This document shows positions 18,291 through 63,218 of a stretch of 64,000 bases of DNA, one piece after another. The position numbers and the translations under genes were made by a program. The notes beneath the pieces are model-generated. The model made no database searches, was not told the origin of the DNA, and saw only the letters and a list, made by a program, of their open reading frames with translations. This stretch comes from a bacterium GBS-1 (lineage in GTDB: Bacteria > Synergistota > GBS-1): positions 10,788 to 74,787 of the forward strand of contig LEKQ01000016.1 in the NCBI GenBank assembly GCA_001443005.1. The letters run 5' to 3'. How positions within the stretch are numbered: position 1 is the first letter of the stretch; each line of letters opens with the position of its first letter.

Positions 18291-18363
18291 CGTTTATGAT
18301 TGAAAAACTTTGTAATCTTACATTTGCTAAAGTTTCAATGCTTTTAGTTAATAGTATTAACCT

Positions 18364-40179: not shown

Positions 40180-40270
40180 TCTTTCACCCCCCATCTTTGA
40201 GAATATGAAAATAGCTTTCTTAATGATAGCATAATATTATAGGTTAAGGCTGGTAGAGGGGGGAAAGGGC

Positions 40271-41011: not shown

Positions 41012-41265
41012 TTTTCAAATTAGGAAAGTAATTTTATTAAAAGTGAGAAATTAAAAGATTTAAGGCGAATCTGGGAATTTTAAGAAGCCTTTGGGGTAAT
41101 GGGGCGCAGTTTAAGAGTTGATTTAGACTTTCTTTCTCTGTTAATTTTATTGTGAATACTAGTATACTGAAGGAGATAGCTATGGTAATGGATAATGATG
41201 CCTATACTGCTCCCCAGAGTAACCCTTTATGAAAATTTCCCGATAGGGTAAGGAGGTGTTTTCCT

Positions 41266-42288
41266 GTGAAAGTGGTAACCTTTGGTGAGATAATGCTTAG
41301 GCTTAGTCCCCCGAACTATAAGAGGATCTTTCAGGCGGAGTCCTTTGACGTTACCTATGGTGGTGCTGAAGCTAATGTGGCTGCCTTTTTGGCCCAGATG
41401 GGGCTTGACGCTTATTATGTTACAAAACTTCCCAAGAATCCTCTGGGTGATGCTGCGATAGGCCATCTCAGGAAGTACGGCGTTAAAACCGATTACATAG
41501 CAAGGGGTGGGGAGAGGATAGGTATATACTTCCTGGAGATAGGGGCATCTCAGAGGGCTAGCAAGGTCGTTTATGATAGGGCTGGCTCTTCTATCTCTCA
41601 AGCCAAAAGGGAAGACTTCGATTGGGAGAGAATACTCGATGGAGCTAGGTGGTTTCACTTCTCTGGCATCACGCCGCCCTTAGGCAAGGAGCTTCCAGCG
41701 ATAGTCAAGGATGCCCTCGAGGTTGCTAAAAAGAGGGGGGTCAAGGTGAGCTGCGACTTGAACTATAGAGCTAAGCTATGGAGTAAAGAGGAGGCCCAGA
41801 GGGTGATGATCCCCTTTATGGAGTACGTTAATGTCCTAATAGCTAATGAGGAGGATATAGAGAAGGTTTTGGGAATCCCAGTTGAGGGGTTGGACCTTAA
41901 GACCGGGAAGATAGTTAGGGAAGCTTATGTTAAAGTTGCAGAGGAGATAAGCAAGAAATATAATTTTGATACTATAGGTGTAACTTTAAGGGAGAGCCTC
42001 TCTGCAACGGTAAACTATTGGTCCGTCATGATCTTCGAGGGGGGTAAGCCTTACTTCTCTAATAGGTATGAGATACACTATATAGTGGATAGAGTTGGAG
42101 CTGGTGATTGTTTCGCTGGAGGTTTAATATACGCTACGTTGAAAGGGTACGATCCCCAGAGGAAGGCTGAGTTCGCGGGAGCGGCATCTTGCTTAAAGCA
42201 TACGATTCCTGGTGACTTTTCTTCCTTAAGCGAGGATGAAGTTGAGAAACTCGCAGGGGGTGCCACATCAGGGAGAGTTGAGAGGTGA
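41266..42288 (+). CDS. kdgK: 2-dehydro-3-deoxygluconokinase (PfkB family)
   Basis: MKVVTFGEIMLRLSP, GGAEANVA and DRVGAGDCFAGGLIY (PfkB signature 2). Confidence 0.85.
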   Translation: MKVVTFGEIMLRLSPPNYKRIFQAESFDVTYGGAEANVAAFLAQMGLDAYYVTKLPKNPLGDAAIGHLRKYGVKTDYIARGGERIGIYFLEIGASQRASKVVYDRAGSSISQAKREDFDWERILDGARWFHFSGITPPLGKELPAIVKDALEVAKKRGVKVSCDLNYRAKLWSKEEAQRVMIPFMEYVNVLIANEEDIEKVLGIPVEGLDLKTGKIVREAYVKVAEEISKKYNFDTIGVTLRESLSATVNYWSVMIFEGGKPYFSNRYEIHYIVDRVGAGDCFAGGLIYATLKGYDPQRKAEFAGAASCLKHTIPGDFSSLSEDEVEKLAGGATSGRVER

Positions 42289-43913
42289 ATCGAAAGGTGC
42301 TTATGCTGAGTTTGGAAGGGTTAAAGGATAGGAATGGTTGGAGCAGGGCTGGTGTAAAGCTTCCGACCTTCGATATAGAAAAGGTCAGGCGAAATACCAG
42401 AGATAATCCGAAATGGGTTCACTTTGGAACGGGAAACATATTTAGGGGGTTTATAGCCGGTATATCGCAGGGTATGATTGAGCTAGGTAGAGAGAGCGTT
42501 GGCATAATCGGGGTTGAGCTTTTCGATTATGAGATTCTAGACAAGATATATTACCCCTATGATAATCTCGCTTTAGCTGTCACTATAAACAGCGATGGAA
42601 CCCTGGATAAAGAGGTTATAGCAAGTATAGCGATGGGATTAAAGGGAAGCCCTGACTCGGGGGACTGGGAGATATTGAAGAGTATTTTTAGGAATCCATC
42701 TTTGCAAGTTGCGTCCCTAACCATAACTGAAAAGGGGTACAACCTTGAGGATGAGAGAGGAAGGCCCTATCCCCAGGTTCTTGAGGACATGGAAAGAGGC
42801 CCTCTTTATCCTAAAACTTCGATGGGACGGATCGTATCGCTTTTATACGAGAGGTTTAGGAGCGGAAAGCTTCCTATCGCCATGCTTAGTCTTGATAATT
42901 TCTCGAGGAACGGAGAGAAGCTATTCTCCTCTCTGAATAAGATAGCTGAGGAATGGGTTAAGATGAGCTTCATAGAGGAGAGCTTTCTGGATTATCTTAG
43001 AGAAAGTGTTAGCTTTCCCTGGAGTATGATAGATAAGATAGTTCCGAGACCTTCGGAGTTCGTTAGGAAGCATCTTGAGGATCTTGGAATTGTCAGGATG
43101 GAAATATATATAACCGAGAAGAAGACCTTTATAGCTCCCTTCGTCAATATGGAGAGAGCACAGTACCTTGTGATAGAGGATAGCTTCCCCAACGGTAGGC
43201 CTCCCTTCGAGGGAGTTTCAAGAAATCTCTTTTTGACCGATAGGGATACCGTTGAGAAGTCCGAAAGAATGAAGGTTACCGCCTGCCTGAACCCTCTTCA
43301 TACCACTCTCGGTGTTTTTGGATGTCTCTTGGGTTATAAGACCATAGCTGATGAGATGAGGGATCCGCTTTTGGTTGAGCTGGTTAAGGGTGTGGGGGAA
43401 GAGGGGATCAAGGTTGTGGTGGATCCAGGTATAATAAACCCAAGGGAGTTTTTGAAAGAGGCCATATCGGAGAGGCTTTCCAATCCCTATTTGCCAGACG
43501 TTCCTCAGAGGATCGCTACAGATACCTCTCAGAAGGTTCCCATAAGGTTCGGTGAGACCATAAGAGCCTATCATGAGCGCCCGGATCTTGACCCTACGGA
43601 ACTTAAGTATATACCATTTGTTATAGCGGGATGGTGCAGGTATCTTTTGGGTGTAGATGATGAGGGTAAGCCGATGGAGCTTAGCCCCGATCCACTCTTG
43701 GATACCTTGAGGGGTTACATCGCTGATGTTAGGTTCGGGGATCCCTATTCGGTGAAGGATCGGCTGAGGCCCATATTGTCAAGTTCGCAGCTCTTTAAGG
43801 TTAACCTTTATGAGGTGGGTTTAGGCCATAGAATAGAGGAGCACTTTAAGAGGATGATAGCTGGCCCCGGTGCCGTGAGGAAGACGTTAAAGGAGATCTT
43901 AGGGGGGATATAG
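42285..43913 (+). CDS. uxuB: Mannitol-dehydrogenase-family oxidoreductase (fructuronate reductase UxuB-like)
   Basis: 542 aa. [12 protein letters not shown] dinucleotide motif of long-chain mannitol dehydrogenases. Position between kdgK and uxuA. Confidence 0.75.
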
Positions 43914-43915
43914 GT

Positions 43916-44998
43916 ATGAAGATGGTCTTCAGGTGGTATGGTGAGGGTAACGACCCTATAACTCTCGAGCAGATAAGGCAGATTCCGGGAGTTGTTGGAG
44001 TTGTTGGAGCTCTGTTTGATGTGCCTGTGGGGGAAGTTTGGCCCCTTGAGAAGATCAAGCACCTTAAGGATACGGTTGAAAGTGCTGGGCTTACCTTAGA
44101 GGTCATCGAAAGCGTTAACGTCCATGAGGATATAAAGCTCGGTCTTTCCACAAGAGATAGATACATAGAGAACTATAGGGAAACGATAAGGAACCTGTCA
44201 AAGGTTGGGGTTAAGGTGGTCTGCTATAACTTTATGCCGATATTCGACTGGATGAGGACGGACCTTCATAAGAAACTTCCCGATGGATCAGAGGTGATGG
44301 AGTACGATCATAGCCTTATAGAGAACATTACCCCTAAGGAGCTGGTTCGGAGGGTTAAAGAGGGCTCTGCAGGGCTCGTTTTACCCGGTTGGGAGTGGGA
44401 TAGGCTCGAGAAGCTTGAGCAAACCTTCGAGCTTTACAAGGACGTTGATGAAAAGAAGCTCCTTGATAACCTGATTTATTTCCTTAAGGGGGTGATCCCC
44501 GTCTGTGAGGAGTGCGATGTGAAGCTTGCCATACACCCTGATGATCCACCTTGGAGCATCTTTGGGCTTCCCAGGATAGTTACTAACAGGGAGAACATAG
44601 AAAAGTTCTTGAAGGCTGTCGATAGCCCTTATAACGGATTGACCCTCTGCATGGGGTCCCTCGGTGCCAACCCGAATAACAACATTCCTGAGATGATCCG
44701 CTATTTTGGTAGGATGGGTAGGATACATTTCGCTCACTTGAGGAATCTCAAGATAGTGGAGCGTGGGAAGTTCTATGAGACCGCTCACCCATCTTTCTGT
44801 GGCTCTCATGATATGTTTGAGGTGGTTAAGGCGTTCCATGATATAGGCTACAATGGATATGTCAGGCCGGATCACGGTAGGATGATATGGGGAGAGAAGG
44901 GGCGTCCCGGTTATGGCCTTTATGATAGGGCTTTAGGTATAACCTATCTTTTGGGTCTCTGGGAAGCCATAGACAAAATGAAGGAAAGGTATTGTTGA
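43916..44998 (+). CDS. uxuA: Mannonate dehydratase UxuA
   Basis: [29 protein letters not shown]-terminus, HPDDPPW, RPDHGR motifs. Confidence 0.9.
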
Positions 44999-50376: not shown

Positions 50377-51240
50377 TCATTCGGAGATACCATACTTAAC
50401 GAGAACTTCGCTTAACAAGTTTAGACGCTTTTGTGATTCGGCCTTTAATTTAGATCCTACAGCAGCTACGATAGCATCACATACTGCCACGAAGGTTATA
50501 GCGCTATAATGACTGGTGTTTTGCGGGGATAGAAGCGTTTCTGTAGCCAGTGGAATCATGGCATTAGATAAGCTATTAGTAATTAGAATTATAGGTACGC
50601 CATTTTTGTGAGCAAAATCTATGGCATATTTGGTTCTTTTAGTGTATCGAGGGACTCCTGCCATCAACGCTATCATAACATCTTGGGGTTTCATGTCTAT
50701 CAAAACTTCAAACATTTCATCTGTTCCATTTGCGTCTACGAGGAAGACATCCTCTCTATATTGAAGAAGTAATGCATGCAGATAGAGAGCTATTCCTCTT
50801 GTAGATCTTAAGCCTATTATGTATACTCTTCTTGCTTTTGCGATTATATCGACGCTTCTGGGGAAAGCTTTCAGAAGCTGTTCGTTGAGCAGGTCTTCTA
50901 AGGCTCTTACGCTCTCGCTTATTATTTTCTCTAGAAGCCCATTTTCATCCAAAGCCTTAAGTGCCTCCCGCATTTTATTTAGAGGCATGCCATGGGTCTC
51001 AGATATATACTCTTTAAGCTTTTCCTTAAGGTCCTTATAGTTTTTAAAACCGAGGTTTACGGACACCCTATGTATTGTAGCTAAACTTGTCTTCGTTTCC
51101 TCAGCAAGTTCTTGAGCGCTTGAAAAAGCAACCTTAATATAATTATTAATTATGTAGTCACAAAGTTTTTTTTGCTTTTTCGGCAAGATTTCCCTTTTTT
51201 GTCTAATTTGGCAAACAACATCTACTTTATCTTCCTTCAT
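50377..51240 (-). CDS. RpiR/MurR-family transcriptional regulator (HTH plus SIS domain)
   Basis: N-terminal HTH_6-like segment (L.KKQKKLCDYIINNY..VAFSSAQELAEETKTSLATIHR) and an SIS-like Rossmann segment (VYIIGLRSTRGIALYL). Confidence 0.75.
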   Translation of the reverse strand: MKEDKVDVVCQIRQKREILPKKQKKLCDYIINNYIKVAFSSAQELAEETKTSLATIHRVSVNLGFKNYKDLKEKLKEYISETHGMPLNKMREALKALDENGLLEKIISESVRALEDLLNEQLLKAFPRSVDIIAKARRVYIIGLRSTRGIALYLHALLLQYREDVFLVDANGTDEMFEVLIDMKPQDVMIALMAGVPRYTKRTKYAIDFAHKNGVPIILITNSLSNAMIPLATETLLSPQNTSHYSAITFVAVCDAIVAAVGSKLKAESQKRLNLLSEVLVKYGISE

Positions 51241-51305
51241 CTTCTTCGCCTCCGATTGTGAGCCTGTTTATGATCCTTTGTTTGTTTCGGAAATACCTTT
51301 CCATT

Positions 51306-52340
51306 TTAGCCACCGTTGATATTGGGAGCTTTGTCTTGCTCTAAGAGTTTAAGCAAGCTTTGGGGGTATCTCATAGATTCGATGGGATAGGAGATGTTCG
51401 CTATATGAATATTCTTCGTTAATCCCAGCTCAACTAAAGGAGCTAGGTAGTTAGCTCCTCCGAATACTACTATGAGCCCTCTGTTTTTTTCCCATATAGA
51501 GAAGCGGAATCTGTTAGGGATCGTGTAGCTGTGGTAAATCGGTTTTCTAAAAGGCGTGTTTTCTAGAAGATCTACTGTTTTTATAACCTTTTCGTATAGG
51601 ATTGACGGAAAGGTTTTGATGGCTGCGGTTACGTGTCCTATTCCTGTTGATATGTAAGAGCTGACAGATGTGTATCCTCCACGAATGAAGAGCTCTCCTG
51701 GGCTTATGGTGGTTCCGGTGTGTATCATGATCTCAGAGAAGCCTCGAACCTTTTCCTCTTCTATGAAAAGTATGCCTGTAGCTGTGCTTTCTATGGGTAT
51801 TCCTCTTTTTTGGAATATGAGGTCGTAATTTCTAGAACTTGGAACGATTAAGGCAACCTCATCCTCTTGAATGAAGATGGTCTTTAACTTTTTCGGTCCT
51901 GGTTCTATCGCTATAAGTGGAGAGAATATGATTTGCCTTTGGCTTAACTTAATCATTATCTCCAAGCTTTCCCTAAGCTGTTCTCTTTTTATGATTAAGG
52001 TGTTTGCGACTATAGAGCCAGTGTTTTTATCTATGTCATAGCTAGATTCCCAAAAAGCTTTTTCTCCTTCTATAGCCATTTCTCCAAGCCTTTCCGGAAG
52101 AAGCATTATTTTAGCTTCTTCAAGCCCTTTTTTCGTGAGCATAACTCCTCTTTTACCTAAGCGTTTTACTAATCCCTTCTTTTCCATATTTAACAGGTGA
52201 TACCTTATTGTGCGGGAATCTACATTAAGCCCCACTTTGCGAAGTCTCTCCTGCAGGTAGAGAGATGTTACAGGTGTCTCTTGGAAGTAGAGATTCTTAA
52301 CTATTTCTAAAAGGGTTGAGGGATGCTCCTCCAGCTCCAT
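51306..52340 (-). CDS. NrpR-like regulator (winged HTH plus one NrpR/DUF128 domain)
   Basis: wHTH LLEIVKN....PVTS..LQERL...GLNVDSRTIRYHLLNMEKKGLV.RLGKRGVMLTKKGLEE followed by a ~230-aa domain. The likely start is the ATG at 52340 after GGGGGTGA; the ORF track extends to 52454. A canonical NrpR operator lies in the adjacent divergent promoter. Confidence 0.6.
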   Translation of the reverse strand: MELEEHPSTLLEIVKNLYFQETPVTSLYLQERLRKVGLNVDSRTIRYHLLNMEKKGLVKRLGKRGVMLTKKGLEEAKIMLLPERLGEMAIEGEKAFWESSYDIDKNTGSIVANTLIIKREQLRESLEIMIKLSQRQIIFSPLIAIEPGPKKLKTIFIQEDEVALIVPSSRNYDLIFQKRGIPIESTATGILFIEEEKVRGFSEIMIHTGTTISPGELFIRGGYTSVSSYISTGIGHVTAAIKTFPSILYEKVIKTVDLLENTPFRKPIYHSYTIPNRFRFSIWEKNRGLIVVFGGANYLAPLVELGLTKNIHIANISYPIESMRYPQSLLKLLEQDKAPNINGG

Positions 52341-52464
52341 ATTTACTATCACCCCCATTAACTTTATAACCCCTAAAAAGATCATTTTAGGGAAGCGGCT
52401 ATCCAAGAGTTTTGGAAGAGTTCTCTTATCATAAATTTTATCATTGTTTTTCAAGTTACCATAC

Positions 52465-52493
52465 TTGCAAAAAGAGAATACTTATGCTATAGT
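52465..52493 (+). promoter_or_regulatory. Sigma-70-type promoter of the DUF1446/PrpD operon
   Basis: TTGCAA (52465-52470), 17-nt spacer, TGcTATAGT (TATAGT at 52488-52493). Confidence 0.6.
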
Positions 52494-52501
52494 GGAGTCA
52501 G

Positions 52502-52523
52502 TTGTGGAAGTGTATTTCCACAA
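52502..52523 (+). promoter_or_regulatory. Perfect palindromic operator TTGTGGAA-N6-TTCCACAA (contains GGAA-N6-TTCC)
   Basis: 8-bp perfect inverted repeat around a 6-nt spacer. It lies immediately downstream of the -10 and immediately upstream of the RBS AAGGAGGGG. Confidence 0.65.
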
Positions 52524-52536
52524 AGGAGGGGTGAAG

Positions 52537-53922
52537 GTGAAGAGGGTGTCTATATTGGTTTCTACGGGAAACTTGGGTGACAACATAATAGAGAAGGGTA
52601 GTTTTTATGAGGGCGTTAAGAGGGATATAGATTGTTTTGCTAATGATGCTGGAACGGCGGATGCGGGACCAACGTTCTTAGGTGCTGATATGCCTCATAA
52701 TCCAATAGAGTGGGAACGACACGATCTTGAGCTGCTTTTGGTCGAAAGCAGAAAGAAAGGAGTTCCGATGATAGTAGGGTCCTGTAGCACCACTGGAACA
52801 GATAAAGCTGTAGATAGATACGCTCAAATCATAAGAGAGGTAGCTAAAGAGAGAAGGCTTGGTCCCTTTAAGATGGCTTTGATATATTCTCAAATAGATA
52901 AGGATGAATTGGCTAAAAGAGTTGAGCGTGGAGATACCGAGCCCTTAGGGGCGGATTATCCTATAACTGAGGAAGTATTGGCTCAGACCAATAACGTAGT
53001 TGCCATGATGGGGGTAGAGCAGATAATCCATGCCTTAAGTTTCGGAGCGGATGTGATTCTCGCTGGGAGGGCCTGTGATGATGCTGTTCTGGCTGCCTAT
53101 CCTATATATAAGGGCTTTCCTAAAGGTATAAGCTTGCACATGGGTAAGGCTTGTGAGTGCGCTTCTTTAGTGTGCTGGCCCCAAAAGGTTAAAGAGTCCA
53201 TAGTGGCTACGGTAACTCACGAGTATTTTTCTATAGAGCCTATGCATCCTGAACAGCGGGCTACTCCTCATAGTGTAGCTGCTCATTCTATGTATGAGAG
53301 GACAAATCCCTTCATACAAGCGGTTCCTGGAGGGGTACTTGATATGCATGAATGCATTTATGTAGCAGAGAACGAAAGAATAACTAGAGTGTATGGAAGT
53401 AAGTTCATACCATCACCTGACGGTTCTTACAAGGTAAAAATCGAGGGGGCAGGGGAAATAGGTTACAGAGTTTATCATATAGTTGGTGTTAGGGATCCGC
53501 GGGCTATTTTTTATATGGACATGATTCTGCAGGAGACTCGCAGGAAGGTTTCTGAGATAATAGGCCCCCATCGTGATAAAGATTACCAACTTTTCTTTCA
53601 CGTATATGGTAAAAACGCTATAATGAAAGATTTTGAACCGGTGAAGCAAACCAGCTCTCATGAGGTGGCGATAGTAATAGAATCGATTTCTAAGGATAAG
53701 GAGCTTGCTACTGCAGTGGCTAAATGTGCAAAGTTTAGACTCTTTTATATGAGCTATCCTGGACAGATGAATTCCTCGGGAGGTTCTGTGGCCTTGCTAA
53801 CCGATGAACCTCTGTATCCTCAGAACAAATGTTATAAGTGGACTATAGATCACCTTTTGAGACTTGATGATCCCTTGGATCCCAAAATATTTCGTTACAA
53901 GTTTGAGATAGTCAGGGGATAG
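52537..53922 (+). CDS. DUF1446 (AtuA N-terminal-like) protein
   Basis: About 460 aa. KRVSILVSTGNLG..., GTADAGP..LG, overall pattern recalled from acyclic-terpene-utilisation AtuA-family proteins. A separate DUF4387-like gene lies nearby. The GTG at 52537 follows GGAGG; the ORF-track start is 52444. Confidence 0.55.
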   Translation: MKRVSILVSTGNLGDNIIEKGSFYEGVKRDIDCFANDAGTADAGPTFLGADMPHNPIEWERHDLELLLVESRKKGVPMIVGSCSTTGTDKAVDRYAQIIREVAKERRLGPFKMALIYSQIDKDELAKRVERGDTEPLGADYPITEEVLAQTNNVVAMMGVEQIIHALSFGADVILAGRACDDAVLAAYPIYKGFPKGISLHMGKACECASLVCWPQKVKESIVATVTHEYFSIEPMHPEQRATPHSVAAHSMYERTNPFIQAVPGGVLDMHECIYVAENERITRVYGSKFIPSPDGSYKVKIEGAGEIGYRVYHIVGVRDPRAIFYMDMILQETRRKVSEIIGPHRDKDYQLFFHVYGKNAIMKDFEPVKQTSSHEVAIVIESISKDKELATAVAKCAKFRLFYMSYPGQMNSSGGSVALLTDEPLYPQNKCYKWTIDHLLRLDDPLDPKIFRYKFEIVRG

Positions 53923-53927
53923 GGGAG

Positions 53928-55343
53928 GTGATCTGGGAATTGGAAAGCGTAAAGGATACGCTTCTCCTTAGGCTTTCGGGGTTTTATTCCAGTTTGGACT
54001 TAGATAGCATTCCTCAAGAAGTGATAGAAAGGGCTAAGGAGCGTCTTATAGATTTTTTGGGTGTATTGGCTGTGGGGTTTAAGAGAGGAGAGGTTGCCTC
54101 CTATGTGAATAAATATGTGCTGAGTTTAGGGGGAAAAGAGGAATCTACCATTCTTTGCTTGAACAGGAAGGTCCCAGCTATTCATGCGGCTTTAGCTATG
54201 GGGGCTATGGCGCATTCAGTGGAGCTTGACGATGGGCATAGATGGGGCACATCGCACCCTGGGGTAGCGATAATACCATCTGTTTTAGCTTTCGGTGAGA
54301 GAGAAGGTAGTGATTTCAAGAGGATGCTTGGAGCCATAGTTGTGGGGTACGATCTCATGCTAAGGGTTGCAAGAGCCATAAACCCATCCCATTTAAGAAG
54401 GGGCTTTCATTCAACGGGTACCTGTGGAGCCTTGGGATCTGCAGCAGCATGCGCGTTCCTTAAGGGCTTCGATGCATTGAGAACCGCCTACTCTGTATCT
54501 ATAGGTGGCTTGCAGAGCGCAGGAATACAGGAGATGCTTCATGACAATCCGTCTATAAAGGTTCTCCAAGCTGGTCATGCTGCTATGGCTGGTGTTTTAG
54601 CAGCTGATCTCGTTGCTCTAGGAGCTAGAGGCCCTAGAACGCTCTTTGAAGGAAAGCATGGTTGGCTCAAGGCCATGTGTAATGGAGAGTATGACGAGAG
54701 AGCTTTAATAGGTGATCTGGGCAAGCGATGGGAGATAAACTTCGCTTATACAAAGCTGTATCCCACTTGTAGGCATTGTCATGCTTCTATAGATTTGGCG
54801 ATAGAAGCTAAGGATACCCTGGGAATACAAAGCCTTAAAGAGGTTAAGGAGGTCTTGATCCGAACATATTCTGTGGGCATAGCTGAGGTCGGCAATATAG
54901 CTTGTCCGAGCTCCTTTGAGGAAGCTCTTTTTAGCCTGCCCTTCTCCGTTTCCGTGGCTCTCATGAAGGGGAATGTAACCCTAGAGGATTACTCTGAGGA
55001 GTCGCTTAGAGATGAGGAACTTAAGGTTTTTGCTAGGGATAGGGTTAAGATTGAGTCTGATCCCGATATGGATAAGTTGTATCCGGAGGAGCGAGGTGCC
55101 TATATGAGAGTATTAACCAGTGATGGAAGGGTGTTTGAGAGAAAGGTTTCTATTCCTCTAGGAGAACCGGAAAGACCTGTGGATCGCGATCGGCTCTACA
55201 AGAAGCTTTCCTCCATACTTGAACCTTACTATCCTGAAAGCTTTCTGAAGGAATTATGGCGTGTGATCATGGAAAGGAGACCTGAGGAATCCTCTTTCGA
55301 GGATATAAAGGAGGTTTATAGGAGGTATTGTGAAAATGGTTAG
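53928..55343 (+). CDS. MmgE/PrpD-family protein, paralog 1
   Basis: N-terminus L..F...L.LDSIPQEVIERAKERLIDFLGV...G, H.VELDDGHRWGTSHPG, C-terminal alpha/beta domain, 471 aa. Confidence 0.8.
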   Translation: MIWELESVKDTLLLRLSGFYSSLDLDSIPQEVIERAKERLIDFLGVLAVGFKRGEVASYVNKYVLSLGGKEESTILCLNRKVPAIHAALAMGAMAHSVELDDGHRWGTSHPGVAIIPSVLAFGEREGSDFKRMLGAIVVGYDLMLRVARAINPSHLRRGFHSTGTCGALGSAAACAFLKGFDALRTAYSVSIGGLQSAGIQEMLHDNPSIKVLQAGHAAMAGVLAADLVALGARGPRTLFEGKHGWLKAMCNGEYDERALIGDLGKRWEINFAYTKLYPTCRHCHASIDLAIEAKDTLGIQSLKEVKEVLIRTYSVGIAEVGNIACPSSFEEALFSLPFSVSVALMKGNVTLEDYSEESLRDEELKVFARDRVKIESDPDMDKLYPEERGAYMRVLTSDGRVFERKVSIPLGEPERPVDRDRLYKKLSSILEPYYPESFLKELWRVIMERRPEESSFEDIKEVYRRYCENG

Positions 55344-55668
55344 AAAATATAAGAACATATGTGAGTTAGCTAGGACTATAAGAAGTAAAAACGCAGGTTC
55401 GTTTGTGATAACGCTGGAGATAATTTTCGATGACAGAGATATATACGAAAAGGTAAAGAAAAGCGGTGTGATAACCAGGGAGAAGATAGCGGAGCTTTAT
55501 GGCGTTGAGCCCGATAAGATTATAGACTTTATGTTTTTCGACCCTGGGATGGGGATAAAGGCGAACTTCAGAAGAGCGTCCCCGAGCGGAGGACCAGGCG
55601 AAACCGATGTGTATGGTTGCCAGCAATATGCGCCTCTTTTCAATATAGATATACCGTGGGATGAGTGA
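55330..55668 (+). CDS. DUF4387 (AtuA C-terminal-like) small protein
   Basis: 112 aa. ...IRSKNAGSFVITLEIIFDD...Y..V..SGVIT...IAELYGV....I....FFDP..GIK......SG..GE.D.YG.QQ..PL. Start at GTG 55330 or ATG 55336, overlapping the stop of PrpD paralog 1. Confidence 0.55.
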   Translation: MKMVRKYKNICELARTIRSKNAGSFVITLEIIFDDRDIYEKVKKSGVITREKIAELYGVEPDKIIDFMFFDPGMGIKANFRRASPSGGPGETDVYGCQQYAPLFNIDIPWDE

Positions 55669-55671
55669 GCC

Positions 55672-57033
55672 ATGTCTTACACTAGAAATTTTGCAACTTT
55701 CATTAGCTCTCTGAGTTTACAATCTGTGCCGCCTGAGGTTCAGCACCAAGCTAAAAGGTGCTTTTTCGATGCTGTTGGAGTTATGATCGCTGGAAGCTTC
55801 TATTCAGATACTGCAAGAGTAGTAAAGAGTTTAGCTCAAGAGCTTGAGGAGGTAGGGGAATCGACCATAGTGGGGACTAATCTTAGGAGGTCTTGCATGA
55901 CAGCAGCCTTTGCTAATGCTGCTATGGCTCATGCTCTTGAGCTAGATGATGGTTCAAAGTATGCCACTTATCATCCTGGTGCTTCTTTAATACCGACCTC
56001 TTTAGCTTTAGCCGAAAAGCTTGGCGCTAGCGGACGAGATCTTTTAGAAGCTATTATCTGCGGGTACGAGGTCTCTCTGAGAATAGGGACGGCGGTAAAT
56101 CCTCATCACTATCTCAGTGGTTTTCATCCGACGGGAACCGTTGCTGTGTTTGGTACTACGGCTGTTTCAGCTAAGCTATTGAAGCTTTCGGAAGAGGAGA
56201 TAGTAAGCGCCCTTGGGATCGCGGGTAGCATGGCTTGTGGAATAAATCAATACGAGATAGATGGCTCAAATGTTAAGCATCTTCATCCAGCAAACGCTGC
56301 CAGAAACGGTATCCTTGCAGCCCTTTTAGCTAAAAAGGGATTGAGCGGCCCTGAGCATATCTTGGAGGGAAGGTTGGGATTTTTCAAGTGCTATGCTCAG
56401 GGGAACTATGACAGAAAGGTTTTGGAAGAAGGTATAGGTAGCGATTTTGAGATCTTGAGGATATACTTTAAGCCCTATCCTTCCTGTCGATACGTTCATT
56501 ACGCTGTAGAGGCAGCGCTAGAGCTTAGGAAGAGATACGGGATAAAGGCGGAGGATGTTGAGAGCATAAATGTAAGGACACACCTAAATGCGAAACAGGG
56601 GTCAGATATTCCTGACTATAGAACCCCTCTACATGCTCGCTTGAGCATTCAGTATGGGATTGCCTCAGTGCTTGTAAGAGGCAAAGCCGGAATGAAAGAA
56701 TATACTGAGGATAGCATAAAAGATCAATGCATTAAGGAGTTAGTTAATAAAATAACAATAGAAGTGGATCCTGAGATTCAGAAGCTTTATCCTAATCCAC
56801 GTTCTTTGGTCCTTGAGATAAACACGAAGGATAATAGGGTATTTTCCCATAGGGTTGATTACCCTAAAGGGGATCCTGAAAATCCCATGAGTGATTCTGA
56901 ACTTGAGGAGAAGTTCTTAGATATCACAGAGGAAGCTTTAGGAAGGGACAAAGCCTGCCTATTAATGGAGAGGCTTTGGAGCATTGATGAGGTAAATAAC
57001 ATAAGATCAATAAGTGAACTTTTAATGCTTTAA
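55672..57033 (+). CDS. MmgE/PrpD-family protein, paralog 2
   Basis: FATFISSLSLQSVPPEVQHQAKRCFFDAVGVMIAGS, HALELDDGSKYATYHPG, 453 aa. Confidence 0.8.
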   Translation: MSYTRNFATFISSLSLQSVPPEVQHQAKRCFFDAVGVMIAGSFYSDTARVVKSLAQELEEVGESTIVGTNLRRSCMTAAFANAAMAHALELDDGSKYATYHPGASLIPTSLALAEKLGASGRDLLEAIICGYEVSLRIGTAVNPHHYLSGFHPTGTVAVFGTTAVSAKLLKLSEEEIVSALGIAGSMACGINQYEIDGSNVKHLHPANAARNGILAALLAKKGLSGPEHILEGRLGFFKCYAQGNYDRKVLEEGIGSDFEILRIYFKPYPSCRYVHYAVEAALELRKRYGIKAEDVESINVRTHLNAKQGSDIPDYRTPLHARLSIQYGIASVLVRGKAGMKEYTEDSIKDQCIKELVNKITIEVDPEIQKLYPNPRSLVLEINTKDNRVFSHRVDYPKGDPENPMSDSELEEKFLDITEEALGRDKACLLMERLWSIDEVNNIRSISELLML

Positions 57034-57038
57034 GGGGG

Positions 57039-58448
57039 GTGTCTGTTTTGGGGGAATTCGTGAATCCCGCAAAGGGAACAATAGGAGAGGCTCTCGCTAA
57101 GTTTGCGGTTGAGCTTAAGTATGAGGATATACCGAAGGAGGTTTTAAGCCATCTTAAGGATGTTATGCTGGATGGCTATGGTTGTGGCTTATTTGGTACT
57201 ACAACACCGTGGTGGAGCATATATAAGAAGGTGTTAACCTCCCTGTTTAAGGAGAAGGAGGTTTCAATCTGGGGCGACAGCGATAAGACATCGGTGGTAG
57301 CTGCTACAATGCTCAACGGAGCTGCTATTAACTCCTTTGAGCTCGATGATACTCACACTGAGGGGATAATTCACGTTTCGACTGGGGTTTTAGGATGTGT
57401 ATCTTCATTTGCGGAGTATTTAGGAAATGTCTCGGGAAAAGATTTTCTTGTGGCGACAACTCTTGCTTATGAGGTATCCTGTAGAATAGCAGCTCCTGTT
57501 GGAAGGATTTTAGCAGATCAGGGGTTTAACAATACTGGAGTTTGTTGTCCTATAGGGTCAACAGCGGCCTGCGGAAAACTATTGAATCTCAATGTAGATC
57601 AAATGATAGATGCCTTTGGTATTGCTGCTAATTGGTCCTCAGGGCTTCAAGCGATTCAGTTTGAGTCTATGGCCAAGAGAATAGTTCCCTCTAAGTCGTC
57701 AGAGGGTGCCATAATAGGAAGTCTTTTAGCTAAAGAGGGATTTACCGGTATAAAGGATGTTTTCGAGAACAAGTTTGGAGGATTTTATAACTGCTTTACC
57801 GATGATGTATACGATAGGGAAAGGATAGTGGGAGACCTAGGCGTTAGGTACGAGCTTATGGGGATAGGTCTCAAGTTTTACTCGACTTGTAGAAGTAAGC
57901 ATACAACCATAGATGCCCTTAAGAGGTTTAGAAGCGAGCATCCAGAGGTTAAGCCTGAGGATATAGAGAAAATAGTTGTTCACACTACTTCTATAACTAA
58001 AAAGTACTCAGTTGATGTAGATAGGATTATCAGCGTAGTCTCAGCTCAGCTCAGTCATCCTTATGTATGTGCTGTGGTTATGCTGGAGGGAGATGCTTTC
58101 ATAGACCAATTTAATGAGGAGAAGATAAGGGACCCCAAAATCCTTGAGCTTGCCAGGAAGGTCGAAGTAGTGGTGGATCCAGAGATAGACAAATTGCCTA
58201 ACTCCTTAAGATATACAGTGCATGTAGATATATACCTCAAGGATGGCAGGAGTTACAGGGTAACCCAGGTTTTTCCTAAGGGACATCCTAAGAATCCCTA
58301 TACGAGGGAGGAGCTTGAGAGGAAGTTCAAAATACTAGCGGGCAAGGTTTTCCAAGATGAGGAGCGCTTAAATAGAATAATCGAGACGGTTATGAACCTG
58401 GAGGATCTACCCAATGTTAATGAGTTGTTTAAGCTTTTGAGCAAATGA
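57039..58448 (+). CDS. MmgE/PrpD-family protein, paralog 3
   Basis: LAKFAVELKYEDIPKEVLSHLKDVMLDGYGCGLFG, NSFELDDTHTEGIIHVS, 469 aa. Confidence 0.8.
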   Translation: MSVLGEFVNPAKGTIGEALAKFAVELKYEDIPKEVLSHLKDVMLDGYGCGLFGTTTPWWSIYKKVLTSLFKEKEVSIWGDSDKTSVVAATMLNGAAINSFELDDTHTEGIIHVSTGVLGCVSSFAEYLGNVSGKDFLVATTLAYEVSCRIAAPVGRILADQGFNNTGVCCPIGSTAACGKLLNLNVDQMIDAFGIAANWSSGLQAIQFESMAKRIVPSKSSEGAIIGSLLAKEGFTGIKDVFENKFGGFYNCFTDDVYDRERIVGDLGVRYELMGIGLKFYSTCRSKHTTIDALKRFRSEHPEVKPEDIEKIVVHTTSITKKYSVDVDRIISVVSAQLSHPYVCAVVMLEGDAFIDQFNEEKIRDPKILELARKVEVVVDPEIDKLPNSLRYTVHVDIYLKDGRSYRVTQVFPKGHPKNPYTREELERKFKILAGKVFQDEERLNRIIETVMNLEDLPNVNELFKLLSK

Positions 58449-59707
58449 AGATGAGAGGGAAAACCATAGTAGAGAAGATCATATCTTCTCATTGTAGGGA
58501 AGGCGTTAAGGCTGGAGATTTCACCGTTGTCTCTGTGGATCTGGCCGTAACTCACGATGCCACAGGTCCTGGAGTGATCAAGGCTTTTGAGGAGTTTGGT
58601 AAGAAGAGCGTGTGGAATAGGGAGAAGATAATTTTCGTTTTCGATCATGCGGCGCCTTCACCAAACGAAAAGGTGAGCAACTTGCACGTTATGATGAGGA
58701 AGTTTACGAAGGAGCACGGAATAAAGCTTTTTGACGTAGGATGTGGGGTATGTCATCAGGTCGTGATTGAGAAGGGACTTGTTTTACCGGGAGATATAGC
58801 TGTGGGTACGGATTCGCATACTTGTACTTATGGCGCGTTAAATGCCTTTGCCTTTGGTATAGGGTCAACCGAGATGGCTGGCGTTTTCTTAACGGGGAAG
58901 CTGTGGTTAAAAGTGCCGGAAACACTAAAAGTAATCTTGAACGGAGGCCTTCCAAAGGGGGTCTATGCGAAGGATGTAGCGCTTAAGATGATAGGTGAGC
59001 TGGGTTCAGAAGGAGCTGACTACTTGGCAATAGAGTTCATCGGAGAGGCTTTAAGTCAGATGCCGATGTCCGACAGATTCGTTTTGTCCAATATGGTTAT
59101 AGAATGCGGAGCTAAAGCTGGTCTAATGGAGGCTGATTCGGAGACACTGTGTTGGCTTAAGGGTAGGGCTCGTAGAGAATTTAGCCCCGTTAGAAGCGAT
59201 GATAACGCAAGCTTTGTAGATGAGCTTTCTATAGACTGCTCTACCCTTCAACCTCAGGTTGCTGTGTATCACTCTGTAGATAACGTTTACCCGATATCTG
59301 AGGTTGAAGGGGAGAGCATCGACCAGGTATTCATAGGAACTTGTACTAATGGAAGGGCTGAGGATTTAAGGGTAGCTGCTTCTATACTCGCTGGAAGGAA
59401 AATCTCTGATGGGGTTAGGCTGATCGTATGCCCAGCTTCACACGATGAGCTTCTTAAGGCTATGAAAAGCGGTGCGATTGAGGTTCTTATAGAAGCTGGG
59501 GCAGTTTTAATACCACCTGGTTGTGGACCCTGTCCTGGTACGCATTTGGGAGTTCCTGGGGATGGAGAGAAGGTGTTATCGACCGCTAATAGAAACTTCA
59601 AAGGGAGGATGGGAAATAACAAGGCTTTCATCTTTTTAGCGTCTCCAGCTACCTGCGCAGCTTCAGCTATAACGGGTAAGATTACAGACCCAAGACGCTT
59701 TCTGTGA
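58445..59707 (+). CDS. Aconitase-superfamily hydro-lyase large subunit (LeuC/HacA-type, 420 aa)
   Basis: VDLAVTHDATGP, GTDSHT, Fe-S ligands GTCTNGR and PGCGPCPG, NRNFKGRMG. Confidence 0.85.
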   Translation: MKMRGKTIVEKIISSHCREGVKAGDFTVVSVDLAVTHDATGPGVIKAFEEFGKKSVWNREKIIFVFDHAAPSPNEKVSNLHVMMRKFTKEHGIKLFDVGCGVCHQVVIEKGLVLPGDIAVGTDSHTCTYGALNAFAFGIGSTEMAGVFLTGKLWLKVPETLKVILNGGLPKGVYAKDVALKMIGELGSEGADYLAIEFIGEALSQMPMSDRFVLSNMVIECGAKAGLMEADSETLCWLKGRARREFSPVRSDDNASFVDELSIDCSTLQPQVAVYHSVDNVYPISEVEGESIDQVFIGTCTNGRAEDLRVAASILAGRKISDGVRLIVCPASHDELLKAMKSGAIEVLIEAGAVLIPPGCGPCPGTHLGVPGDGEKVLSTANRNFKGRMGNNKAFIFLASPATCAASAITGKITDPRRFL

Positions 59708-59723: not shown

Positions 59724-60224
59724 GTGGGGGAGATCCTAAGAGGTAGGGCTTTCAAGCTGGGAGATAACATAAATACAGATTATATAATAGCCGGGAAGTA
59801 TACGAAGACCCTGGATTACGCATTTTTAGCGGAGCACCTGCTTGAGGATGTGGACCCTACGATAGCAAAAAGGATTAAAAGAGGAGATTTCCTCGTGGCT
59901 GGGAAGAACTTTGGCTGCGGGTCATCAAGGGAGCAAGCGGCTATAGCTATAAAGTATGCCGGTATAAGCGCTGTTTTGGCTAAGTCCTTTGCAAGGATCT
60001 TTTTCAGAAACGCTATCAACCTAGGGCTTCCAGCCTTAGTTTGCGATACTGATCTTGTAGATGAGGGGGATGAGCTTGAGCTTGATATCGAAACCCTCTC
60101 TCTGAAAAACCTCTCTAAGAGCATACCAATTCCCGTTGTTCCCCTAAATAAGATTATGGTGAACATACTTAGGGAGGGAGGACTAGTCCCCTATCTAAAA
60201 AAGCATGGGGATTATGTCTTTTGA
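59724..60224 (+). CDS. Aconitase-superfamily hydro-lyase small subunit (LeuD/HacB-type)
   Basis: GDNINTDYIIAGKY, GKNFGCGSSREQAA.A.K..GI.AV.A.SFARIFFRNAINLGLP. Confidence 0.85.
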   Translation: MGEILRGRAFKLGDNINTDYIIAGKYTKTLDYAFLAEHLLEDVDPTIAKRIKRGDFLVAGKNFGCGSSREQAAIAIKYAGISAVLAKSFARIFFRNAINLGLPALVCDTDLVDEGDELELDIETLSLKNLSKSIPIPVVPLNKIMVNILREGGLVPYLKKHGDYVF

Positions 60225-60254: not shown

Positions 60255-61268
60255 ATGTCTAAGGGGAAAACGGTGAAAGTAGCTCTTTTTACCTTGATGC
60301 TTCTTTGCATTACGGTAGTAGCTTTCGCTAAGGTTTACTATCTTAATATGGGGAGCACTTCTTCGGCTTCTCCAATTTACGCTTGGTGCGTTGCTACCGC
60401 TAACGCTATAAATAAAGAATATGATGATATAAGGGTTACCGTCGTGGAAAGCGGTGCTGCCTTAGATAACTTGAGGAGACTTAGGGATGGAGAGTTTGAT
60501 TTTGCTTTAGCGGTGGACTTACCATCTGCGATGCAAATGTATAAGGGAATAGACGCTTTTAAGGGAACCCCGTGGAAAGAGGTTAGATGGTTGCTTGTCA
60601 GAAACGTGATTGCAGACAGGGTTTACGTTCTTAAGGAACTTAACATTAAGAACTTTGCTGAGCTCGAAGGTAAGCCCTTCTGCCCCGGGCTTCCTGGCTC
60701 TTCGAGTGCTAACTACATGATGAGAATGGCTGAAGCTTTGGGTCTCAAGATGAACTTTCGCCCTGCTAGCTTAGCTGATGCGATTGAGTTGCTTAAGCAG
60801 AAGAAAATAGTCGCTTTACAGCAGTCCAGTCCCATTGATTCTATGTCTGCTGCGTTGCTTGAGGTGCATATTCACACTCCGTTAACGGTTGTAGGGTTTA
60901 CCAAAGAGCAAGTTGAGAGAATCAGGCAAGTTTATCCCTACCTCAGCTTCATTGAGACTCCTAAAGGAGGTATAAAGCAGCTGCCTGATGCAGGGCCTTT
61001 CTATGAAGAAGCTCCTATAGTTGGTGCGGTGGCTTCAAGCAAGCTCCCTCAAGAGGTAGGATACAAGATAATCAAAGCTTATGTCAAGCGCTTTAACGAG
61101 ATTGCTGAAGCTTGGCCAGCAATTAAGGGTTGGGATCCTGTCAGAGACTTCTTTAAGTACGCTCAACCTGGTGGAGATATCCCCGCTCACGCGGGCTTAG
61201 TACAGTATGCTAAGGAGATAGGCATAGAGGTTCCCGAAAGGTTAATACCTCCTGAGTATAAGCCGTAG
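60255..61268 (+). CDS. TAXI-family TRAP transporter solute receptor (divergent), secreted
   Basis: Signal peptide. ...V.ESGAALDNLRRLRDGEFDFALA pattern and ~330 aa size typical of TAXI binders. It is adjacent to a fused TAXI-type permease gene. Confidence 0.65.
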   Translation: MSKGKTVKVALFTLMLLCITVVAFAKVYYLNMGSTSSASPIYAWCVATANAINKEYDDIRVTVVESGAALDNLRRLRDGEFDFALAVDLPSAMQMYKGIDAFKGTPWKEVRWLLVRNVIADRVYVLKELNIKNFAELEGKPFCPGLPGSSSANYMMRMAEALGLKMNFRPASLADAIELLKQKKIVALQQSSPIDSMSAALLEVHIHTPLTVVGFTKEQVERIRQVYPYLSFIETPKGGIKQLPDAGPFYEEAPIVGAVASSKLPQEVGYKIIKAYVKRFNEIAEAWPAIKGWDPVRDFFKYAQPGGDIPAHAGLVQYAKEIGIEVPERLIPPEYKP

Positions 61269-61355: not shown

Positions 61356-63218
61356 TTGGATAGAGAGAGGGTTATCAGATATTGGTCTATGTCGTTTGCG
61401 TTAGTTCAGCTTTTGGTTCCCCTGTTTTTAACAGACCTTATAGATATCCAGTTGAGGGCTGTTCATGTGGCTTTGGGATTAAGCCTCGCTATACTTGTAT
61501 TTTCTAAACGAGTGGGGAAAATAACTCCCTTTGAGATGTTGATGATAATTATAGTTTTATTAGCTAACATCAATATCTTAGGTGATGCCTATGATATATA
61601 TATCACGCCTGGCGCTTCTGACTCATGGGATATAGCCCTTGGCATCGCTATTTTTATGATCATCTTAATTGTTGCGAGGAATTCAATGGGGTGGCCAATT
61701 CCAACGATGGTTCTGCTTTTTCTTGCATATATATTTTTGGGTAGATATATGCCAGGGATATGGAAGCTTAGAGGTTTATCCCTTCGCTATGTAATAAACT
61801 CTATCTACTGGTCTCCCTTGGGGGTGTACGGCTCCATTACCGGCATGTCTGCCACTTTTATTTCTACTTTTATAATCTTCGGCTCGCTTATAGCTAGTGT
61901 TGGAGCTGGAAAGACCTTTATAGATTTGGCTTTGGCTTTAACGGGAAGGTATCGTGGTGGCCCGGCTAAAACCGCTGTAATATCGAGCGCCCTTTTTGGG
62001 AGCATTTCTGGGAGTGGCGTGGCTAATGTGTGTGTTACTGGGAACTATACAATCCCCTTGATGAAACGTTTAGGCTATGACAAGGATTTTGCCGCGGCGG
62101 TAGAAGCGATAGCTTCTACAGGAGGCATCATAACTCCTCCACTTATGGGAGTAGCTGCCTTTATGATGGCCGAGTTTCTGAAGATATCTTATTTTAACGT
62201 AATGGGCTATGCTTTAATACCTTGTATATTGTTTTACACGGGAGTTTATGGTGGGGTTCATTTCTATACTTTGAAACATAATCTAGCTGCGGTTCCTGAT
62301 GAAGAGATACCCTCATTTAAAGAGGTTTTAAGGCCTGAGAGGATACTACCCCTGCTTTTACCCACGGTTGTTCTAATTTACCTGATAGCCATAGGAAGGC
62401 CGTTAATGTATGCCGGTTTCTATGGAAGCTCAACGTGTATACTTTTGCACCTGTTTCTCTCCCTTCTAAGGGGGAGATTAAAGAAGGGGGTAAAGGATAT
62501 CCTTGCAGGATTGGAAGATGGTGGAAAGGGTTTAGCAAGGTTGCTTCCGGTTTTAGTTTCGGTAAACGTCTTGGTTAATATGATAGGTATGACCGGCATT
62601 GCGCCGAAGCTAAGCGGTATAATAACCTCTTTAGGCGAAAATAATATGATACTCTCTCTTATCATAGCTACTATAATACCATTCATTCTAGGTACCTCTC
62701 TTCCAGTGGTTCCTACATATATGCTTTGCATATCCATTCTTTCATCTCCTCTTATGAAGATTGGTGTAAGGCCAGAGGCGATTCATCTCTTTTTCATATA
62801 TTGGTCTATGTTGGGAGGGGTAACTCCACCAACCTGTACCCAAGCGATGGTAGCTGCGGGTATAGCTGGAGGAAATTGGGTAAGAACGGGTTTCCTATCG
62901 GTAAAGCTCGGTATAGTGGCTTTTATAATCCCATTCTTCTTCGTCATTAACCCGGCGCTGTTAGGTTTGTCAACATGGGGTGAAGTGATCTCTTCAGCCA
63001 TAACCGGTTTTGCGGGAGCATTGCTTTTGTCCTTTAGCTTGTTCTGGACCTTTAAGGGGATCCCAGGTATTCTCTTAAAGGCAGTGTTTTTTATTAGCGG
63101 GCTTCTAGCTCTATACCCCAATTTATGGATTTCCTCAGCCTCGTTGGCTATAGTTGCTCCTATTCTGTTTCTTGGTAAGAAAAAGGGATACATAGCTGCT
63201 AGGGAAAGCTCTCCTTAA
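61356..63218 (+). CDS. TAXI-type TRAP transporter fused permease (DctQ-DctM fusion)
   Basis: 620-aa polytopic protein. The segments FGSISGSGVANV..TG..TIP.MKR.GY and GGIITPP.MG.AAF are typical of the fused 4TM/12TM TRAP permease. Confidence 0.8.
   Translation: MDRERVIRYWSMSFALVQLLVPLFLTDLIDIQLRAVHVALGLSLAILVFSKRVGKITPFEMLMIIIVLLANINILGDAYDIYITPGASDSWDIALGIAIFMIILIVARNSMGWPIPTMVLLFLAYIFLGRYMPGIWKLRGLSLRYVINSIYWSPLGVYGSITGMSATFISTFIIFGSLIASVGAGKTFIDLALALTGRYRGGPAKTAVISSALFGSISGSGVANVCVTGNYTIPLMKRLGYDKDFAAAVEAIASTGGIITPPLMGVAAFMMAEFLKISYFNVMGYALIPCILFYTGVYGGVHFYTLKHNLAAVPDEEIPSFKEVLRPERILPLLLPTVVLIYLIAIGRPLMYAGFYGSSTCILLHLFLSLLRGRLKKGVKDILAGLEDGGKGLARLLPVLVSVNVLVNMIGMTGIAPKLSGIITSLGENNMILSLIIATIIPFILGTSLPVVPTYMLCISILSSPLMKIGVRPEAIHLFFIYWSMLGGVTPPTCTQAMVAAGIAGGNWVRTGFLSVKLGIVAFIIPFFFVINPALLGLSTWGEVISSAITGFAGALLLSFSLFWTFKGIPGILLKAVFFISGLLALYPNLWISSASLAIVAPILFLGKKKGYIAARESSP

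Follow-up and report, generated by a model that had tools for sequence, protein, structure and literature searches.

A predicted NrpR-type repressor in bacteria and its candidate GGAA-N6-TTCC operator on a conserved non-nitrogen regulon

In the literature searched, NrpR is treated as an archaeal nitrogen repressor, and bacterial copies appear only as curiosities of lateral transfer (PMC1852104). What does a gene of this family control in a bacterium, where it stands divergent from an operon of carboxylate-type enzymes? The question is raised by a stretch of 64,000 nucleotides (nt) of the bacterium GBS-1 (Synergistota; assembly GCA_001443005.1, contig LEKQ01000016.1, positions 10,788 to 74,787), hereafter the window, in whose own coordinates all positions are given. 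An initial annotation read the locus as an NrpR-type regulator with a perfect palindrome on the promoter of a carboxylate operon, and this reading is supported here by the family profile, the fold and the conservation of the site. Sequence comparison makes it quite probable that a bacterial NrpRI-type repressor acts on the divergent operon via a GGAA-N6-TTCC operator. The features concerned are the following.

51306-52340, minus strand: nrpR-like gene, 344 amino acids, with a winged helix (residues 12-75) and one NRD (residues 93-324)
52465-52493, plus strand: sigma-70-type promoter of the operon, TTGCAA (52465-52470), 17 nt, TG-n-TATAGT (TATAGT at 52488-52493), found by consensus scan
52502-52523, no strand: main candidate operator, a perfect palindrome TTGTGGAA-GTGTAT-TTCCACAA with the core GGAA-N6-TTCC

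The protein belongs to the NrpR family at the level of profile and of fold, and its architecture is that of NrpRI. In Pfam, residues 12-75 match PF08461 (HTH_12) with an E-value of 3e-12 (46.7 bits against a cut-off of 21.4), and residues 93-324 match PF01995 (NRD1_2) with 7.9e-47 (159.9 bits against a cut-off of 25), covering profile positions 9-237 of 238. The NRD is present in a single copy, as in NrpRI, and the winged helix-turn-helix plus single NrpR/DUF128-like domain of the initial annotation is thereby confirmed. No NCBIfam model matches the protein. With phmmer it matches 3NEK, the NrpR-like MJ0159 of Methanocaldococcus jannaschii, at 1.5e-4. An AlphaFold (AF2) model, computed from an alignment of 34 sequences (mean pLDDT 87, pTM 0.83), shows a three-helix plus wing topology in its N-terminal part, and 3NEK is again the top match of this model in Foldseek (E 2.6e-13, TM 0.84 normalised to the target). 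The assignment of such proteins to the NrpR family is itself not new, as NCBI already names them 'NrpR regulatory domain-containing protein'. The motifs G-T-T-x-x-P, T-G-x-G and G-G are invariant in the alignment of the bacterial clade with the archaeal proteins, which would be compatible with a conserved ligand pocket. The gene runs from an ATG at 52340 to a stop at 51306; this ATG is taken as the real start for its own Shine-Dalgarno sequence, GGGGGTGA, and its agreement with the N-termini of homologues, and a longer open reading frame (ORF) from a TTG at 52454 was rejected as an upstream extension produced by the ORF rule. Within the coding region, 51438-51459 forms another perfect 8+8 palindrome, AGGAGCTAGGTAGTTAGCTCCT, which encodes the conserved motif G-A-N-Y-L-A-P and is probably a by-product of the coding sequence.

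The main palindrome lies between the predicted promoter and the ribosome-binding site (RBS) of the first operon gene, AAAGGAGG at 52523-52530, which is followed by a GTG start at 52537. The repeat finder reports an 8+8 inverted repeat, 100% complementary, with the arms TTGTGGAA (52502-52509) and TTCCACAA (52516-52523) separated by the 6 nt GTGTAT (52510-52515). A reading of the sequence from 51200 to 52700 found palindrome, promoter and RBS as initially annotated. The significance of the site derives from its position and conservation, not from counts within the window.

Conservation was assessed by tblastn of the window proteins against all fetched loci, which gave a comparison set of 16 related non-redundant loci, mostly labelled Synergistota, or 17 loci with the window. 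In these 16 loci the NrpR-like gene (39-65% identity) is divergent from genes for AtuA (72-92% identity), PrpD1, DUF4387, PrpD2, PrpD3 and the aconitase-like subunits, as far as the DNA reaches. The AtuA/NrpR intergenic regions are otherwise unalignable, and each contains a TTGACA-17/18-TATnAT promoter directed toward the operon, followed by a 22-bp palindrome, for example TAATGGAAATTGATTTCCATTA in locus L001, AAACGGAAATCTATTTCCGTTA in L017 and TTTCGGAAGTGAACTTCCGAAA in L023. The -10 hexamer is separated from the palindrome core by 11-18 nt and from the start of the (C)GGAA-N6-TTCC(G) palindrome by 7-14 nt, whereas the distance from palindrome to start codon varies from 12 to 361 nt; fixed spacing to the promoter and variable spacing to the start codon indicate a DNA operator over the transcription start rather than an RNA element beside the RBS. 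In 17 of 17 loci the operator of the main target covers about +1 to +25 of the predicted promoter, in agreement with the roadblock position around +2 to +23 proposed at the outset, and the palindrome is not absent from orthologous promoters, one of the GGAA-N6-TTCC type being found at the same promoter-relative place in 16 loci. Across the 17 loci, 20 exact cores fall in 6.7 kb of AtuA/NrpR intergenic DNA and 13 in the other 232 kb, a 53-fold higher density, and several of these 13 also lie in promoters. The Poisson probability of about 1e-27 for this enrichment is overstated, given the relatedness of the loci and the AT-richness of intergenic DNA. After symmetrisation the consensus reads TTACGGAAATnnATTTCCGTAA, in which T10 and A13 carry 1.5 bits each.

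The conserved operon comprises the following genes in the window.

52537-53922, plus strand: AtuA/DUF1446 family, first operon gene (Pfam AtuA, 1.1e-18)
53928-55343, plus strand: PrpD/MmgE paralogue 1 (Pfam)
55330-55668, plus strand: DUF4387 (Pfam)
55672-57033, plus strand: PrpD/MmgE paralogue 2 (Pfam)
57039-58448, plus strand: PrpD/MmgE paralogue 3 (Pfam)
58445-59707, plus strand: aconitase-family large subunit, LeuCD/HacAB-like archaeal type
59724-60224, plus strand: aconitase-family small subunit, LeuCD/HacAB-like archaeal type
60255-61268, plus strand: TAXI-type TRAP solute-binding protein (Pfam NMT1_3)
61356-63218, plus strand: fused DctQM-type TRAP permease (Pfam DctM)

The gene order is conserved in relatives. 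The TAXI-TRAP genes probably form the end of the operon, and in L004 an NMT1_3 gene likewise follows the aconitase genes. The label 'PrpD operon' given initially holds at family level, but not for a specific enzyme: the three paralogues score 24-70 bits against NCBIfam equivalogs of 2-methylcitrate dehydratase with cut-offs of 458-950 (best scores 46, 70 and 46 bits against 950, 575 and 575), and only the family-level Pfam model MmgE_PrpD is satisfied. The aconitase-like pair exceeds the cut-offs of the subfamily models NF001614, TIGR02086 and TIGR02087, which assign it to the LeuCD/HacAB type only. No functional assignment for AtuA/DUF1446 or DUF4387 was found in the literature searched, in which one paper places a DUF1446 gene in glutamate-fermentation clusters. 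Taken as a set of transporters, an amide hydrolase, dehydratases and a hydratase, with a lyase in relatives, the controlled genes look like a pathway for the breakdown of a substituted di- or tricarboxylate that is imported and possibly amide-linked.

Further targets were sought in the window with a matrix derived only from the other loci, the site of the window being excluded. Its top three hits are all intergenic and score far above the rest (17.9, 16.5 and 16.4), and three hits of at least 15 bits compare with 0.095 in 200 local shuffles. These sites and the genes beside them are listed below.

51285-51306, no strand: candidate operator TTTCGGAAATACCTTTCCATTT, score 17.9, the best in the window, with an exact GGAA-N6-TTCC core; directly adjoining the nrpR stop codon, with the rpiR-like start 45 nt downstream
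50377-51240, minus strand: RpiR/MurR-family regulator gene, HTH_6 plus SIS (Pfam, NCBIfam)
20067-20088, no strand: candidate operator CTTCGGATAGTAATTTCCATAT upstream of the C26 peptidase-DcuC pair, score 16.5 (16.6 by a matrix including the window's site)
20320-21060, plus strand: peptidase C26 / class-I glutamine amidotransferase-like hydrolase (Pfam)
21139-22539, plus strand: DcuC-family carrier (Pfam)
52502-52523, no strand: main operator, score 16.4, rank 3 in the window

The regulator thus probably also controls the C26-DcuC pair 30 kb away, a membership that is independently supported by orthologues behind operators in other loci (L001-L004, L006 and L011/L012). The identity of the C26 orthologues is 51-54% in L001-L004 and L011/L012 and 43% in L006, and that of DcuC is 69-71% in L001-L003 and L011/L012. 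In L001-L004 the pair (51-53% and 71%) adjoins nrpR behind two exact cores, with an ICL/PEP-mutase-family gene in the region; in L004 the contig ends before the DcuC gene. A high-scoring site in L006 heads an operon of an opp-like ABC transporter, an amidohydrolase and C26. In L012 one unit of operator, promoter and Shine-Dalgarno sequence precedes genes for C26, AtuA, DUF4387, DcuC, an alanine-racemase-N-like protein and NrpR. The arrangement in Acetomicrobium is colinear as well, with aconitase-like genes, two ORFs judged TAXI-TRAP only by size, an unannotated ORF of 295 amino acids, NrpR and DcuC. The rpiR-like gene is a tentative member and possibly part of the regulon: it is missing from this position in relatives, and beside 51285-51306 neither the consensus scan nor inspection by eye gave a convincing -35/-10 pair. 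The carboxylate operon named initially as the target therefore stands, but the predicted regulon is wider.

Some further features were observed around these sites. A weaker copy of the CTTCGGATAGTAATTTCCATAT site is found at 19871-19892 (score 9.6, or 10.4 by the matrix including the window's site), and a 29-nt direct repeat (19869-19897 and 20065-20093) carries both operator-like sites, 196 bp apart. They lie within about 740 bp without a long ORF (19584-20319) that separate the encapsulin region from the gene for the C26 peptidase, where a possible promoter, TTGAAA-18-TAAAAT at about 20177-20206, was read by eye downstream of both. A CRISPR-like repeat, suspected there since GTTGAAAT recurs, was rejected, as the repeat finder detected only two short pairs, one of them bearing the operator-like sites. 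A weaker operator-like site, TTTAGGAAATAGATTATCGCTA at 14837-14858 (score 12.4), has one good and one poor half-site; the gene downstream of it, at a distance of 72 nt, encodes an M32 carboxypeptidase (13272-14765, minus strand).

A second site is found on the nrpR side of the intergenic region. There the exact GGAA-N6-TTCC core is present in 10 of the 17 loci, including L001, L004, L015, L017, L021 and L023, and six more have a one-mismatch match; the spacing to the main site, calculated for eight loci, is 115-166 bp. In L001 this second site lies downstream of a TTGAAA-17-TAAAAT promoter facing nrpR, read by eye. Such an arrangement suggests that nrpR is autoregulated in relatives. The window contains the following counterpart.

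52391-52404, no strand: degenerate operator on the nrpR side, GGAAgcggctATCC, matrix score 1.8, the positional counterpart of the exact sites of relatives

This is a decayed nrpR-side site, as judged by comparison with the relatives. Two imperfect upstream copies had been noted initially, of which 52391-52404 proved to be the degenerate orthologous site, while GGAAgagttcTCTT at 52414-52427, although present as described, has no matrix score and is probably due to chance. The likeness then drawn to the two-operator promoters of methanogen nif and glnA was not upheld, since a second operator located 115-166 bp off, toward nrpR, speaks for autoregulation rather than for tandem operators as at nif. 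The same intergenic region also carries a palindrome CCCTAAAAAGATCATTTTAGGG (52371-52392), with 11-nt arms, one mismatch and no spacer, located 31-52 nt before the nrpR start, with a 2-nt overlap with the decayed site; it is absent in L001 and L004 and hence specific to the window.

The proposed mechanism, in which DNA binding, sign of regulation and effector are predictions, is as follows. A dimer of the regulator would bind the 22-bp palindrome (family consensus TTACGGAAAT-nn-ATTTCCGTAA, core GGAA-N6-TTCC) through half-sites one helical turn apart, at an operator that begins 7-14 nt past the -10 box of the divergent sigma-70-type promoter. Bound across the transcription start (about +1 to +25), it would block open-complex formation or promoter escape, and it is for this position of the site that the protein is taken as a repressor. 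Release may be brought about by a small molecule in the NRD domain, the candidates being 2-oxoglutarate, to which archaeal NrpR responds, and a di- or tricarboxylate from the controlled pathway. Through the second site the gene would be autoregulated in relatives; in the window this site has decayed. The C26 amide hydrolase-DcuC pair 30 kb off would probably be controlled too, and possibly the adjacent rpiR-like gene.

Several observations weigh against this mechanism. At the Cys position of TVCNLT all Synergistota-type members have Ser, whereas the two archaeal relatives in one alignment (A1) and the majority consensus of a second, mostly archaeal alignment (A2) have Cys; the window protein contains no cysteine at all. 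A variant core, GGCA-N6-TACC (cGGCAatcaatTACCg), is found in three loci (L021, L022 and L067), and the nrpR-side site of the window is degenerate. No clear site was found near nrpR in the Acetomicrobium loci, where the head of the operon lies outside the fetched DNA, and the loci of archaeal relatives show no motif next to the gene; a recurrent match at about 6595 in the latter was rejected as an operator because it is coding sequence of the conserved motif G-T-T-I-P-P. The predicted targets of all loci comprise AtuA/PrpD/aconitase-like/TRAP genes, C26 peptidase-DcuC, an ICL-like gene, an opp-like operon and the rpiR-like gene; none of them is nif, glnA or glnK-amtB, nor are these among the annotated ORFs of the 64-kb window, so that what holds for the effector of archaeal NrpR need not hold here. 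Finally, GGAA-N6-TTCC occurs three times in the window against 2.18 expected, and perfect 8+8/N6 palindromes five times, shuffles giving about 1.1. Taken alone, the palindrome is thus not beyond chance within the window, and counts so near expectation would suit a chance palindrome devoid of function; this explanation has next to no probability, being contradicted by the 53-fold enrichment and by a position and sequence kept in 16 loci whose intergenic DNA is otherwise unalignable.

Of the functional alternatives, an RNA hairpin at the 5' end of the operon mRNA, tuning transcript stability or translation and unrelated to the NrpR-like protein, would account for the fold of the transcript, an 8-bp stem with a 6-nt loop (-9.3 kcal/mol, z = -3.1) that abuts the RBS in the window, L001 and L004. 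The Shine-Dalgarno sequence nevertheless stays unpaired in this fold, the site keeps its distance to the promoter and not to the start codon, and the core GGAA/TTCC letters are kept instead of co-varying. The inner AT..AT loop positions are also conserved: T10 and A13 would fall in or beside the loop of a hairpin, which would not need them, and their information was therefore counted for an operator. Sites of the same type occur on the nrpR side and in other promoters as well. A hairpin as the sole function is very unlikely on these grounds, but a hairpin could still arise as a by-product of the operator. Rfam identifies no known RNA element at the locus, and in the whole window only a cobalamin riboswitch and a tRNA. 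It is likewise highly improbable that the palindrome serves another transcription factor while the NrpR-like protein regulates elsewhere, for example nitrogen genes. An RpiR-like regulator is indeed encoded next door, but its gene is missing from related loci, the motif is the published NrpR consensus (PMC2723118), and it accompanies the nrpR-like gene across changes of gene order, divergent in most loci and colinear in L012. An activator or dual regulator bound at the site is also unlikely. Some sites do lie well upstream of the nearest plausible promoter, as at 20067-20088, about 90 nt before TTGAAA-18-TAAAAT (both read by eye); the main site, however, holds the classical repressor position of about +1 to +25 in all 17 loci, and the characterised NrpR proteins are repressors (PMC9765008).

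With the NrpRI-type repressor as the preferred reading, its distribution can be considered. An identical protein is present on a contig of the hot-spring metagenome 3300000083 (JGI, record name GBSSWat77C), and the closest source-named proteins (38-65% identity) are labelled Synergistetes or Thermovirga. A genome-contig scan with the window protein as sole query gave no relatives, whereas a profile scan of a species-level genome collection did recover some, with 39-45% identity in Acetomicrobium, Thermovirga, Aminivibrio, Aminobacteriaceae, Synergistaceae and two 'Thermococci archaeon' contigs, and with 26-32% identity in archaeal single-NRD proteins of Bathyarchaeia, Nezhaarchaeales, Methanomethylicia and others. 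The Synergistota-type NrpR clade forms a group of its own with its own conserved target operon. The two contigs binned as 'Thermococci archaeon', L011 and L012 (700-6984), encode a Synergistota-type NrpR (44-45% identity) in the compact order C26, AtuA, DUF4387, DcuC, alanine-racemase-like gene, NrpR, with a bacterial-looking TTGACC/-10 promoter and a GGAGG Shine-Dalgarno sequence; further on, L012 carries an archaeal-type ATPase_2 gene. They represent either mis-binning or recent transfer into an archaeon. In the complete genome 'Bacterium M3-1' (L036, 5872-6423) only the C-terminal half of an NrpR-like gene is found, from G-T-T-I-S-P on, beside an ORF that is either fused or disrupted; this resembles the remains of a pseudogene.

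The window itself is bacterial: it encodes PriA, EngA/Der, an OmpR-type response regulator with histidine kinase, an MCP and PlsY/PgsA-type genes, and it carries Shine-Dalgarno and sigma-70-type signals. Elsewhere in it, a cobalamin riboswitch (18118-18291, minus strand; Rfam RF00174, 91 bits) precedes a cluster for cobalamin salvage with CobT-like DBI_PRT (17021-18055), CobU (16527-17003) and CobS (15066-15830). An encapsulin shell gene is located at 18431-19228 on the minus strand (Linocin_M18, 5e-81), and its cargo could be encoded in the reverse-strand stretch just upstream, at about 19243-19583, a candidate for which no ORF is defined. A hexuronate utilisation cluster (38818-44998) consists of UxaC, its own IclR/KdgR-type regulator of the IclR family, a PfkB kinase, a mannitol-dehydrogenase-family oxidoreductase and UxuA, and is unrelated to the operator.

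The locus is best regarded as a predicted case of an NrpR-type repressor placed in bacteria on a conserved non-nitrogen regulon, and not as a new principle of regulation. The bacterial NrpR-type clade now has an in-silico operator, a promoter geometry and a conserved regulon without a classical nitrogen gene. A broader scenario, offered as a speculation that is more doubtful than probable, is that a 2-oxoglutarate sensor of archaeal origin was captured by Synergistota-type bacteria and rewired to sigma-70 promoters as the dedicated, self-regulated switch of an undescribed pathway, with 2-oxoglutarate or a new NRD ligand gating catabolism instead of nitrogen assimilation. Such a pathway might import its substrate through the TAXI-TRAP, DcuC and opp-like systems, hydrolyse the amide by means of C26, and employ AtuA/DUF4387 together with the three PrpD-family dehydratases, the hydratase of LeuCD type and the ICL-like lyase; an amide-linked tri- or dicarboxylate might thereby be converted to products related to glutamate or 2-oxoglutarate in amino-acid fermenters. 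In any case the system is a clean one in which to ask whether the NRD domain keeps 2-oxoglutarate sensing or takes a new ligand, and how one repressor design serves the transcription machinery of both archaea and bacteria. The regulon links AtuA/DUF1446 and DUF4387 with the three PrpD paralogues, the C26 hydrolase and the ICL-like lyase and so offers an entry to a pathway as yet unassigned, and the 22-bp operator with its repressor of thermophilic derivation could be used as a metabolite-responsive switch.

Among known systems, NrpR of Methanococcus maripaludis (MMP0607), the nitrogen repressor of Euryarchaeota, shares with the window protein the winged-helix plus NRD family, the operator core, published as GGAAN6TTCC (PMC2723118), the predicted repressor logic with a block at the start site, and the presence of more than one operator per control region; the fold of the sensor domain likewise matches the homologue 3NEK of M. 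jannaschii. It differs in possessing two NRD domains instead of one and in acting on archaeal basal transcription instead of a predicted bacterial sigma-70-type promoter. The M. maripaludis repressor controls nif, glnA, glnK-amtB and molybdate transport (PMC2723118), while no nitrogen target was seen here among window ORFs or predicted targets, and the tandem operators of archaeal nif contrast with two widely spaced sites. Expression of NrpR itself is not nitrogen-regulated in M. maripaludis (PMC9765008), whereas among the relatives of the window gene an operator is found on the nrpR side itself. The response to 2-oxoglutarate is shown for the M. maripaludis protein, and here 2-oxoglutarate is a candidate effector.

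Closer in architecture is NrpRI of Methanosarcina mazei, with a winged helix and one NRD, and several of the database homologues of the window protein bear the label 'global nitrogen regulator NrpRI'. NrpRI of M. mazei reportedly works with a separate, NRD-only NrpRII that contacts archaeal TBP/TFB (as attributed to Weidenbach et al. 2010). Such contacts are impossible in a bacterium, and no second PF01995 protein, and so none of this NRD-only, NrpRII-like type, was found among the ORFs scanned in the 64-kb window. The nearest archaeal single-NRD proteins, from Bathyarchaeia and others, share only 26-32% identity with the window protein. Earlier reports of bacterial carriers concern only Dehalococcoides, whose NrpR homologues were attributed to lateral transfer from archaea (PMC1852104). 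These are uncharacterised in the literature searched and were not recovered among the relatives here. The new bacterial use of NrpR suggested by the initial annotation thus stands for the non-nitrogen operon, but not for bacterial homologues as such; no study of NrpR in Synergistota, or of any bacterial NrpR regulon, was found in the literature searched.

The controlled genes, finally, may be compared with the 2-methylcitrate cycle (prpD, acnB, prpB). They differ from it in that no methylcitrate synthase is seen, the aconitase is of the LeuCD/HacAB type, and AtuA, DUF4387, a C26 hydrolase and transporters are added. Common to both is the combination of a dehydratase of the PrpD family with a hydratase of the aconitase family and, in relatives, with an ICL/PEP-mutase-family gene, and with it the logic of dehydrating, rehydrating and cleaving a substituted citrate.

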